Under the pieces are notes generated by a model that saw only the letters and a list, made by a program, of their open reading frames with translations, had not been told where the DNA came from and searched no databases. A stretch of 64,000 nucleotides of DNA from Escherichia coli O127:H6 str. E2348/69. Its GTDB lineage: Bacteria > Pseudomonadota > Gammaproteobacteria > Enterobacterales > Enterobacteriaceae. Location of the stretch: the NCBI RefSeq assembly GCF_000026545.1, contig NC_011601.1. One strand, written 5' to 3'. Shown one piece after another: positions 4,326 through 33,170 of this stretch. Positions within the stretch are counted from its first letter, which is position 1, and every line of letters begins with the position of its first letter. The translations under genes were made by a program, and so were the position numbers.

Positions 4326-6035
4326 TTATTTCAGCGGCGAGTTTTTACGCTCAATGCTGTAACGCTCGAGTTCTTTGTACGGCACCACTTTGCTCTTCTT
4401 CTTACGCACATCGACCACGGTCATGCGGTCGGTACAGGAGTAGCAAGGGTCCAGGCTACCGATAATCAACGGCGCATCGGAAACGGTGTTGCCGCGCAGC
4501 ATGTAGCGCAGGGTCGGCCAGTTCGCGTAGGTCGCCGCACGGCAGCGCCAGCGGTACAGCTTCTGGTTGTCGCCGGTCATGCTCCAGTGGATATCATCGC
4601 CGCGCGGCGCTTCGGCAAAGCCCAGCGCAAAGCGGTGCGGAATGTAGGTAAAGCCTTCCACCATCAGCGGGCCGCCCGGCAGGTTATCCAGACCGTAATC
4701 GATCATATTCAGCGCGGTATAGACTTCGTTGATACGCACTTTCAGACGGGAAATAACGTCGCAGCCCTGCTCGCTGTGGACTTCCATTGGCAGCAGGCCA
4801 TAACCAACAAACGGGTGATCGGCACGGGTATCACGGGCGTGACCGCTGGCACGAACCATCGGGCCAACGTTACTGAAGTCGCGAGCGATTTCCGGGTCCA
4901 GACGACCAATGCCGACGGTGCGTTGTTCCATGTTCGGTGTGCTCAGCAGCACATCCACCAGCTCCTGCACTTCACGACGCATCTGTTGTGCCAGCTGGCG
5001 GGTCTGGATCATGTCGTCTTTCAGCAGATCGCGACGAATCCCACCGATCAGGTTCAGGCCGTAGGTTTTACGCGCACCGGTAAGGATCTCTGCCATTTTC
5101 ATGGAGGTTTCACGCACGCGGAAGAACTGCATAAAGCCGGAGTCGAAGCCGGTAAAGTGACAGGCCAGGCCGAGGTTGAGCAGATGCGAGTGCAGGCGTT
5201 CTACCTCCAGCAGAATGGCGCGGATCATCTGCGCGCGTTCTGGCACCTGAATACCCATCGCGTTTTCCACCGAAGTGGTATAGGCGGTGCTGTGAGCAAA
5301 GCCGCAGATCCCGCACACACGGTCAGAGAGGAAGGTCACTTCGTTGTAACCCATACGGGTTTCCGCCAGTTTTTCCATGCCGCGATGGACGTAGAACAGG
5401 CGGTAGTCGGCGTCGATAATGTTTTCACCATCGACGAACAGACGGAAGTGACCCGGTTCGTCAGAAGTGACGTGCAGTGGACCAATCGGCACGACGTTGT
5501 TTTTCTTGTCGCCCAGTTCGTTGATGAACTCGTAGGTTTCAGCATCGGTAGTCGGTGCCGGACGCTGACGATAATCCATGCTGTCTTTACGCAGAGGATA
5601 AAGTTCATCCGGCCAGTCATCCGGCAGCACCAGACGACGTTCATCCGGCAGACCAACCGGAATCAAACCGTACATATCGCGCACTTCACGCTCGCCCCAC
5701 ACCGCCGCCGGAACGCGCGGCGTCACGGAAGGATACTCCGGTTTGTTGGCGTCAACTTCGACGCGAACCGTTACCCAACACTTGGTGCCCTTCTCCATCG
5801 ACAGCACGTAATAAACGGCGTAATGACCATTCAGTTTGCGTTCGTCGTTACCAAACAGCACCGACAGCCAACCCCCTTGTTTGTAGTAGAGAAACTCCAC
5901 CACTTCCGGCAGGTAGTTCACCTTCACGGTGACGGTTAGCTGATCTTTGGTCTGCCAGGCGTGGTCCAGCACGACGCCAGGAAATGCCTCATTCAGCGCG
6001 GCGAGATAATGTTGACCTAATTTTTCTTCAGACAT
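4326..6035 (-). CDS. hycE: Hydrogenase 3 large subunit HycE (569 aa)
   Basis: Translation MSEEKLGQHYLAAL... with NiFe-hydrogenase large-subunit motifs; start set at the conserved MSEEK. Confidence 0.95.
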   Translation of the reverse strand: MSEEKLGQHYLAALNEAFPGVVLDHAWQTKDQLTVTVKVNYLPEVVEFLYYKQGGWLSVLFGNDERKLNGHYAVYYVLSMEKGTKCWVTVRVEVDANKPEYPSVTPRVPAAVWGEREVRDMYGLIPVGLPDERRLVLPDDWPDELYPLRKDSMDYRQRPAPTTDAETYEFINELGDKKNNVVPIGPLHVTSDEPGHFRLFVDGENIIDADYRLFYVHRGMEKLAETRMGYNEVTFLSDRVCGICGFAHSTAYTTSVENAMGIQVPERAQMIRAILLEVERLHSHLLNLGLACHFTGFDSGFMQFFRVRETSMKMAEILTGARKTYGLNLIGGIRRDLLKDDMIQTRQLAQQMRREVQELVDVLLSTPNMEQRTVGIGRLDPEIARDFSNVGPMVRASGHARDTRADHPFVGYGLLPMEVHSEQGCDVISRLKVRINEVYTALNMIDYGLDNLPGGPLMVEGFTYIPHRFALGFAEAPRGDDIHWSMTGDNQKLYRWRCRAATYANWPTLRYMLRGNTVSDAPLIIGSLDPCYSCTDRMTVVDVRKKKSKVVPYKELERYSIERKNSPLK

Positions 6036-30529: not shown

Positions 30530-31669
30530 TTATCGCTGCGGCAAATAACGCAGCGGGTTTACGGATTTCCCCTTGTAACGAATTTCAAAATGCAAGCGTG
30601 TTGAACTGGTTCCGGTGCTACCCATGGTTGCTATTTTTTGCCCCGCCTTCACTTCTTGTTGTTCCCGGACCAGCATTGTGTCGTTATGGGCGTAGGCACT
30701 CAGGTAATCATCATTATGTTTGATGATAATCAGATTACCGTAGCCGCGCAGCGCGTTACCGGCATAAACAACGCGGCCATCTGCGGTCGCGATAATTGCC
30801 TGTCCTTTGCTGCCTGCGATATCAATCCCCTTGTTGCCCCCCTCAGAAGCGCCAAAGGTTTCGATCACTTTGCCCTCAGTCGGCCAGCGCCAGGTGGAGA
30901 TAGGCGTACTGGTTGATGTACTGCTGACAGTCGGCTCGGTTGTGCTTGCTGTTGGTACCGTTACAGGCGCTGTGACCGTGGTCGCAGTTGGCTTGTTGTT
31001 CGGCAACATTTTGTTAGCACTCTGTTCACCCGAAGACTCAGAATACGTAATTGTCGGTTGCGACGCAACAGCAACGGTGGAATTTTGTGCAGGCTTGATC
31101 ACAACTCCTTGCTCTGCTGCGTCGGCCTGGGTAATGGCATTTCCGCCTGTGATTGGCGTACCGGAAGCATTACCCACCTGTAAGGTCTGACCGACGTTCA
31201 GCGCGTATGGTGCCTGAATATTGTTGCGCTGAGCAAGGTCACGGAAATCGTTGCCAGTAATCCAGGCGATATAGAAAAGCGTGTCGCCTTTTTTCACGGT
31301 GTATGTACTGCCGCTATAACTGCCTTTCGGAATGTTCCCATACTGACGGTTGTAGACGATTCGTCCGTTTTCCATCTGTACCGGCTGCTGAGCTACTGGC
31401 TGCACTGGCTGGATTTGCGGTTGTTGAGTAGCCTGAATTTGTGGCTGCTGTACCGGCTGAATTTGCGGTTGCTGTGCTGTAGACGTCGTCCCCATTTTCG
31501 GCGGCGGCGTAATCAACATACCAGAATGGGTATTTGCAGGCGCATTGCCATTAACGGAGCTGACCGGTGCCGGTGGATTTGAAGTGTCAGAACAGCCTGC
31601 CAGCCATAGCGAAACCAGTGACAAAGCCGCAATGCGGCGAACGGTGAATTTTGGGCTTCCCGCGCTCAT
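30530..31669 (-). CDS. nlpD: Murein hydrolase activator lipoprotein NlpD (379 aa)
   Basis: Lipoprotein signal LAGCS, LysM domain, C-terminal LytM/M23 domain; known to contain the rpoS promoter. Confidence 0.95.
31407..31478 (-). repeat. Three imperfect 24-bp tandem repeats inside nlpD encoding the QQPQIQ(P/A)(V/T) linker
   Basis: ctggatttgcggttgttgagtagc / ctgaatttgtggctgctgtaccgg / ctgaatttgcggttgctgtgctgt read from the sequence. Confidence 0.55.
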
Positions 31670-31808
31670 TTATCCCCCAGGAAAAATTGGTTAATAACCA
31701 GTGACATAATTACCGTGCAAGGCACCATACTGAACACTGGAAAAGATGTTCACGATACGCTGACTTGCGGCAAAATAACCAGGAAAAATCCAGGTATTTC
31801 CTCACGTT

Positions 31809-33170
<1,362 letters not shown>

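Follow-up and report, generated by a model that had tools for sequence, protein, structure and literature searches.

Rare in-frame length alleles of a diverged Gln/Pro-rich linker repeat in nlpD of Escherichia coli

The tandem repeat in nlpD of Escherichia coli O127:H6 str. E2348/69 is an ordinary low-frequency linker-length polymorphism of a known feature. Very probably, the tract is a Gln/Pro linker repeat that has given rise to rare, stable, in-frame alleles and that leaves the rpoS promoter intact. This account draws on the observed anatomy of the repeat, the observed spectrum and frequencies of its alleles, their breakpoints, and the position of the tract relative to the rpoS promoter (rpoSp). 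The window, the whole stretch of DNA that was analysed, comprises 64,000 nucleotides of contig NC_011601.1, and all coordinates refer to it.

Gene context and anatomy of the repeat

The open reading frame (ORF) that contains the repeat has pcm on its upstream side and rpoS on its downstream side in the list of ORFs. Both the surE-pcm-nlpD-rpoS synteny and the near-identity to E. coli NlpD are those expected of an nlpD gene. Identity between the ORF and nlpD of E2348/69 is 100%, the product is likewise identical, and the K-12 form of NlpD is an exact match to NLPD_ECOLI. At its N terminus the translation has a lipoprotein signal peptide that carries a lipobox cysteine, and Pfam places a LysM domain ahead of a (degenerate) LytM / Peptidase_M23 domain (Table 1). 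On this basis the ORF is identified as nlpD, predicted to encode the outer-membrane lipoprotein activator of the amidase AmiC. NlpD is known to be an outer-membrane lipoprotein (PMC5533458), and Tsang et al. 2017 described it as a LysM domain, a dLytM domain and two linkers for which disorder is predicted, with septal localisation depending on LysM and AmiC activation on dLytM (PMC5533458). A weak midcell affinity was also reported for the N-terminal linker on its own (PMC5533458), and the linker is thus possibly more than a passive spacer. In E2348/69, 17 Gln and 15 Pro are present among its 96 residues.

Table 1. Coordinates of nlpD, its domains, the repeat units and the inferred rpoS promoter in the window
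Feature	Position	Strand	Description	Basis
nlpD CDS	30530..31669	minus	379-aa murein hydrolase activator NlpD	ORF list, E2348/69 identity, Pfam
Lipoprotein signal peptide	31592..31669	minus	lipobox LAGC, Cys26 = lipid anchor	translation
N-terminal linker	31304..31591	minus	residues 27-122	composition, Pfam domain borders; disorder predicted in Tsang et al. 2017
LysM domain	31175..31303	minus	residues 123-165	Pfam PF01476, E = 2.8e-12
Degenerate LytM / Peptidase_M23 domain	30554..30835	minus	residues 279-372	Pfam PF01551, E = 4.6e-33
Repeat unit U1	31451..31474	minus	QQPQIQPV, CAGCAACCGCAAATTCAGCCGGTA	codon register
Repeat unit U2	31427..31450	minus	QQPQIQAT, CAGCAGCCACAAATTCAGGCTACT	codon register
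Repeat unit U3	31403..31426	minus	QQPQIQPV, CAACAACCGCAAATCCAGCCAGTG	codon register
Degenerate fourth unit	31379..31402	minus	QPVAQQPV, CAGCCAGTAGCTCAGCAGCCGGTA	codon register
11-bp block, copy in U1	31461..31471	minus	CAACCGCAAAT	direct-repeat list, variant hybrid units
11-bp block, second copy, in U3	31413..31423	minus	CAACCGCAAAT; 48 bp from U1 copy	
12-bp block, copy at U1/U2 border	31448..31459	minus	CAGCCGGTACAG	direct-repeat list, Z142-6 and L012
12-bp block, second copy, end of fourth unit	31376..31387	minus	CAGCCGGTACAG; 72 bp from first copy	
Inferred rpoSp core promoter	31034..31068	minus	start ~31034	literature distance and hexamers read from sequence
-10 hexamer of inferred rpoSp	31040..31045	minus	TATTCT	read from sequence
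Candidate -35 hexamer of inferred rpoSp	31063..31068	minus	TTGCGT; 17 bp upstream of -10	

Three in-frame 24-bp units occupy 31403..31474 (residues 66-89), and a degenerate fourth unit extends the tract to residue 97 and to 96 bp (31379..31474). The original prediction, which was made from the sequence of the window, had placed three imperfect repeats at 31407..31478. This is the same tract with a register shift of 4 nt, and the accompanying claim that the units encode the Gln/Pro-rich linker of NlpD is likewise borne out, with the units in-frame and located between the lipid anchor Cys26 and the LysM domain. The first 9 bp of the fourth unit form, together with the end of U3, a 9-bp tandem (QPV QPV).

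At the DNA level the units have diverged considerably. Pairwise identity among the three is 17/24, 20/24 and 15/24 (62-83%), and the longest perfect repeats in the tract are 11-12 bp. U1 and U3 resemble each other most (20/24); all four of their differences are synonymous, and they share the longest in-register identity block found among the units. Because the DNA copies are identical only to this extent, Tandem Repeats Finder reported no array in 30500..32500 at a minimum score of 30. Self-identity at a period of 24 was therefore scored directly over a span of 48 positions at each of 63,929 starts in the window. The maximum, 34/48, was reached at 11 overlapping starts (31401..31411) and is unique in the window, and none of the other starts among the 63,929 had a self-identity of 32/48 or more. 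Therefore, the repeat signal is above chance, and the tract is an old, diverged, protein-level repeat.

Length alleles and their breakpoints

When repeat number was compared across E. coli genomes, as the original prediction had proposed, it was found to vary. The survey set consisted of 5,426 complete E. coli genomes, 5,419-5,420 of which have the nlpD repeat locus, and variants were detected using synthetic or natural variant alleles as BLAST queries, with cut-offs that are unreachable for the wild type. A 221-bp query had matches in 5,419 genomes, and 39 of 40 evenly sampled matches span exactly 221 bp. The weakest match to this query, in strain Z142-6, has an in-frame 72-bp deletion that keeps one QQPQIQPV and whose endpoints, in the alignment, are the two copies of CAGCCGGTACAG. 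A 301-bp query gave near-full-length alignments (at least 391 bits) in 5,344 genomes. Of about 5,420 genomes, no fewer than 5,344 (98.6%) thus have the standard length, and all 159 matches listed for these two queries and for a divergent query allele (2017-02-2CC) have the wild-type span, with the exception of the -72 strain Z142-6.

Among the complete genomes, a -48 bp allele with one copy was detected in 61 (including O157:H7 EC4115, TW14359, and SS17), a -72 bp allele in two, and a +48 bp allele with the arrangement PV AT PV AT PV in one, the baboon isolate PapRG-04-4. No -24 allele (U1+U3 query) and no +24 allele (U1 U2 U2 U3 query) was detected in the 5,426 genomes by these two queries, which are blind to unit-3/4 events and to very divergent backgrounds. 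Similarly, the +72 allele query had no match in the 5,426 genomes, and a 7-copy allele (L011) used as query was present in no complete E. coli genome, although this search brought the +48 strain to light. With the divergent allele of 2017-02-2CC as query, every match listed had wild-type length, as did TR01, Z0117EC0005, and RM9872. A search at an intermediate cut-off was passed by 5,356 genomes and left 11 with intermediate scores, 10 of which are in the 90-95% identity band; these 11 may carry divergent normal-length alleles or alleles with small indels. Proven length variants amount to 1.2% and the -48 allele to about 1.1% overall, and the variant total is 64-75, the spread corresponding to the 11 genomes with intermediate scores.

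A wider search consisted of exact look-ups of hypothetical alleles in a 15-billion-protein collection and also covered draft assemblies and read sets. Single-unit changes are present there: a -24 allele was found on 25 contigs, with six more in a second protein background, and a PV-PV form of -24 on one contig (Shigella flexneri). The +24 allele (PV-PV-AT-PV) was found on three contigs, and a +72 tandem duplication in a draft E. coli assembly (P0003/L012). NlpD proteins shortened by 16 residues were found in Shigella dysenteriae and S. flexneri. A perfect 72-bp duplication is present in the 7-copy allele (P0004/L011), but truD, pcm, nlpD, and rpoS of the same assembly are only 90-95% identical to those of E. 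coli, and the allele therefore probably comes from another Escherichia lineage. Across all collections, the known alleles have 1, 2, 4 and 5 copies, in addition to the ±72 bp alleles. Three copies are also present in E. fergusonii. In Salmonella, Citrobacter, Kosakonia, Enterobacter and others, the Q/P-rich linker is degenerate, has no clean units and is similar in length, and NlpD orthologues across genera have 362-384 residues overall.

The breakpoints of these alleles coincide with short stretches of identity between units. The single unit of the common -48 allele is a hybrid with a U1-derived 5' part and a U3-derived 3' part (CAGCAACCGCAAAT joined to CCAGCCAGTG), and the crossover can therefore be placed inside the 11-bp block CAACCGCAAAT, the copies of which are 48 bp apart. 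Hybrid units at this block were found in EC4115, AMSHJX01, ECCWS199, P276M, and PapRG-04-4, and the +48 and the common -48 alleles are exact reciprocals of each other. For the -72 and +72 alleles, the crossover is at the 12-bp block CAGCCGGTACAG. The -48 junction of PEC145 is of a second type, in which the whole K-12 U1 is retained, and is consistent with a crossover in GTGCAGC, a string common to the U1/U2 and U3/U4 borders. If the indels are repeat-mediated, then breakpoints at identity blocks and reciprocal losses and gains are expected; the breakpoints are within 7-12 bp identity blocks of the units, and the pairs -24/+24, -48/+48 and -72/+72 were all seen. The alleles have also recurred independently: -48 is found on at least four flanking haplotypes and with two junction types, and -24 on two DNA backgrounds. 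For the -48 allele, haplotypes and junctions indicate at least two origins.

It could be argued that collapse or expansion of the repeat during sequencing or assembly produced the length variants as artefacts, given that -24, +24 and +72 are known only from draft or read-set assemblies. However, a 96-bp tract with diverged units is spanned by single reads, the junctions are precise, in-frame and at identity blocks, and the -24 allele recurs on at least 24 contigs of different samples. In addition, the 61 genomes with the -48 allele, EC4115 and TW14359 among them, were finished independently and are phylogenetically coherent. An assembly artefact was therefore rejected on the grounds of finished genomes, precise junctions and recurrence across samples, and is almost certainly not the source of the variation.

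The distribution of the -48 allele within O157:H7 bears on the stability of the variants. About 30 O157:H7 genomes have this allele, including EC4115, TW14359, SS17, SS52, JEONG-1266, and others, and the three-copy form is present in O157:H7 strains RIMD 0509939, TW14588, and 2159. Deletion and junction aside, the flanks of EC4115 differ from those of three-copy O157:H7 by one SNP. Variant alleles thus appear to be inherited stably within lineages. It had been predicted that such a tract can expand or contract by slipped-strand mispairing; length alleles do exist, but they are rare, with the standard length in at least 98.6% of complete genomes. Nor does the tract have the appearance of a slippage-prone one, as the copies are 62-83% identical, perfect repeats do not exceed 11-12 bp, and ±1-unit alleles are absent from the 5,426 complete genomes. 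Changes are instead biased towards ±2 units, because U1 and U3 are more alike than any other two units.

Position of the tract relative to the rpoS promoter

The major rpoS promoter lies inside nlpD, 567 nt upstream of the rpoS ATG (PMC8545128). A sigma-70 consensus scan of 30400..31900 returned no strong promoter-like site, and rpoSp was therefore placed by the literature distance. With the rpoS ATG at 30467, the published 567 nt put the rpoSp start at approximately 31034. The repeats are located 369-440 bp from this inferred start, on its upstream side, and the tract with its fourth unit (31379..31474) overlaps neither the start nor the core promoter and is outside the 5' UTR too. Consequently, the predicted location of the repeats within the rpoS promoter region of nlpD is not borne out; the promoter lies downstream of them.

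Every variant observed is a multiple of 24 bp and in-frame, and the six variant strains checked share a single annotated RpoS protein accession with the wild type. Nothing supports an effect of copy number on rpoS expression, and there is probably none. With rpoSp placed as above, the position of the tract would exclude the most interesting of the proposed consequences, namely the tuning of rpoS.

If the tract were a hypermutable repeat of the contingency type, frequent slippage would tune NlpD and, via the embedded promoter, rpoS. Such a repeat is expected to have near-perfect head-to-tail copies, to differ frequently among close strains, and to switch reading frame or promoter spacing. The existence and recurrence of length variants would fit this reading, as would the location of the major rpoS promoter inside nlpD, but the remaining evidence does not. 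The copies have 15-20/24 identity and were left blank by Tandem Repeats Finder, at least 98.6% of genomes have one length, and the ±1-unit alleles represented by synthetic queries are absent from complete genomes. Furthermore, the alleles look stable, as in the roughly 30 O157:H7 genomes that share -48; all changes are in-frame; and the tract is upstream of the rpoSp start by the distance given above rather than in the 5' UTR. Hypermutability of this kind is very unlikely.

Linker length and comparison with known systems

Selection could in principle act on the length of the linker itself: a tether shorter by 16 residues would alter the reach of NlpD, the activation of AmiC and cell separation, and this would explain the recurrence of -48 in pathogens. 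The same -48 product has indeed arisen on at least four haplotypes with at least two junction types, and it is found in proteins of Shigella dysenteriae and S. flexneri in addition to the O157:H7 set. Moreover, in the model of Tsang et al. the activity of NlpD is controlled by its physical reach to peptidoglycan, and the weak midcell affinity of the linker alone comes from the same study (PMC5533458). However, mutation explains the -48 bias equally well, U1 and U3 being the most similar units with the longest in-register block, and the overall frequency of the allele is just about 1.1%. Linker length and sequence also drift freely between genera, as seen in orthologues of 362-384 aa whose repeats are degenerate, and Yersinia lacks the repeat region (PMC2736372). 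According to Tsang et al., long linkers make it unlikely that outer-membrane anchoring alone is what limits reach (PMC5533458). Selection on linker length is therefore improbable. A little less probable again is that the recurrent 16-residue shortening is adaptive through a changed reach to septal peptidoglycan, the timing of AmiC, envelope properties or host interaction. The cases to which such an adaptive reading would apply are the O157:H7 sublineage (EC4115, TW14359, SS17, SS52), Shigella dysenteriae, S. flexneri, and scattered commensals.

The preferred explanation is a rare length polymorphism. The tract is a low-complexity Gln/Pro segment of the disordered linker that tethers LysM and dLytM to the outer-membrane lipid anchor. 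Its origin is probably an old duplication, in-frame, of a unit of 8 codons within the Escherichia lineage, after which the DNA of the units diverged, mostly at synonymous sites. Replication slippage or unequal recombination between units, the likely mechanism of change, would be rare because only 7-12 bp identity blocks are left, but would still occur. Its products would be the in-frame alleles with 1, 2, 4 and 5 copies and the ±72 bp alleles, apparently stable within lineages. These alleles change the length of the linker by 8-24 residues out of 96 and are presumably near-neutral: neither the reading frame nor the functional domains are disrupted, and the rpoS promoter, some 400 bp downstream, is intact.

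One observation speaks against neutrality and makes selection possible: the same -48 product is fixed in several unrelated lineages, comprising the O157:H7 group, Shigella dysenteriae, S. flexneri, and diverse commensals.

For genome biology the repeat carries little weight, as NlpD has been known for it at textbook level since 1994. The natural series of 1 to 5 copies nevertheless provides linker-length variants for testing the reach model of Tsang et al. 2017. The -48 bp allele can also serve as a clean in-frame marker: it subdivides O157:H7 genomes and turns up again in Shigella. More generally, the tract is an example of diverged coding repeats in which change takes place chiefly between the units that resemble each other most (here ±2) and not in single-unit steps.

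A Pro/Gln-rich amino-acid repeat in E. coli NlpD was reportedly described by Ichikawa et al. in 1994 (J Bacteriol 176:1630). Tidhar et al. 2009 noted the repeat in E. coli and Salmonella NlpD and its absence in Yersinia (PMC2736372). Gene, residues and repeat are the same as those analysed here, and the feature itself is no different; what is added is the strain-level spectrum of copy numbers. No report of copy-number alleles of E. coli nlpD was found in the searchable literature. Thus, the repeat has been known since 1994, and the allele spectrum compiled here is a modest extension of that knowledge.

Coding VNTRs and contingency loci consist of tandem in-frame units that vary by slipped-strand mispairing. 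The nlpD tract resembles them in its tandem in-frame units, in whole-unit indels and in reciprocal gain and loss. In contrast to such loci, its units are diverged (62-83%), its variation is limited to about 1% and apparently stable, and it has no ON/OFF or promoter-spacing consequence.

A parallel within nlpD is the in-frame 12-bp deletion of Salmonella Typhimurium UK-1, which Luo et al. 2012 judged to be outside the rpoS promoter region and unlikely to affect rpoS (PMC3391293). This is likewise a strain-specific in-frame indel inside nlpD, to which the same reasoning about rpoS was applied, but it concerns another species, 12 bp and a single allele, as opposed to a recurrent change of repeat units. 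In Pseudomonas fluorescens SBW25, too, nlpD has an unusual mutational feature, there connected with the embedded rpoS promoter: Farr et al. 2025 described a transcription-dependent point-mutation hotspot at rpoSp (PMC11838912). In that case, however, a single C-to-T nonsense change overlaps the promoter and depends on transcription, whereas in E. coli the repeat lies some 400 bp upstream of rpoSp and its length alters through repeat-mediated in-frame indels.

Alleles of the nlpD repeat tract

Genomes of E. coli O157:H7 fall into two groups by the -48 bp nlpD allele, in which one copy of the 24-bp repeat is left rather than the standard three and NlpD is shorter by 16 residues. The deletion is carried by EC4115 (allele L005), TW14359, SS17, SS52, JEONG-1266, and about 25 others, and three copies are present in RIMD 0509939 (allele L006), TW14588, strain 2159, and others. 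NlpD shortened by 16 residues was also found in Shigella dysenteriae and S. flexneri. A literature search returned no published account of the -48 bp allele dividing O157:H7, and the allele is a possible lineage marker.

Substitutions among E. coli nlpD alleles cluster in the second and third repeat units, and the flanks are nearly invariant. For instance, in strain 2017-02-2CC (allele L003), unit 2 has changed from QQPQIQAT to QQPQIQSA, with 8 changes in about 30 bp. Either relaxed constraint or inter-unit conversion may account for this clustering. Among complete E. coli genomes, 11 scored only 300-391 bits against the 301-bp wild-type nlpD query, 10 of them at 90-95% identity, and BLAST with nlpD queries gave zero matches to the region in a further 6-7.

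The rpoS frameshift and the annotated nlpD start

In the window, rpoS contains one added G (GCGCGG to GCGCGGG) at about gene position 392, which breaks the gene into two ORFs (30063..30503 and 29474..29992). RpoS is truncated by this frameshift, its normal sequence ending after about residue 131. An 81-bp query spanning the insertion had exact matches in only two complete genomes, NZ_LT827011.1 and NZ_LT903847.1, both of which are E. coli O127:H6; rpoS is intact (993 nt) in the E2348/69 RefSeq record NZ_CP059840.2. On these findings, the window derives from an rpoS-null O127:H6 (E2348/69-type) stock.

In every record inspected, current RefSeq annotation places the nlpD start at codon 16, giving a product of 364 aa, whereas NLPD_ECOLI corresponds to the 379-aa ORF from the upstream ATG. 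The codon-16 start drops the positively charged K/RR n-region from the lipoprotein signal peptide, and the shorter RefSeq start looks like an annotation error.

Features of nlpD and rpoS in the window
Feature	Position	Strand	Remark
rpoS, frameshifted	29474..30467	minus	one-G insertion at about 30076
Second NlpD linker, Thr/Ser/Pro-rich	30860..31170		residues about 166-270
9-bp tandem CAGCCAGTG CAGCCAGTA (QPV QPV)	31394..31411		spans units 3 and 4 of nlpD
First 15 codons of nlpD	31625..31669	minus	379-aa ATG ORF versus RefSeq start at codon 16

Other in-frame deletions in NlpD

Natural in-frame deletions occur in the second NlpD linker as well. In the protein variant P0032 (340 aa), this linker lacks 39 residues (QPTITY...VPTAS), such that ...VAVAS is fused to TTEPT. 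Another variant, P0152, is 360 aa long and is encoded on 7 contigs; it is missing 19 residues, and its deletion ends within the 9-bp tandem encoding QPV QPV. In NlpD of Kosakonia cowanii and Citrobacter koseri, the QPV triplet is multiplied.
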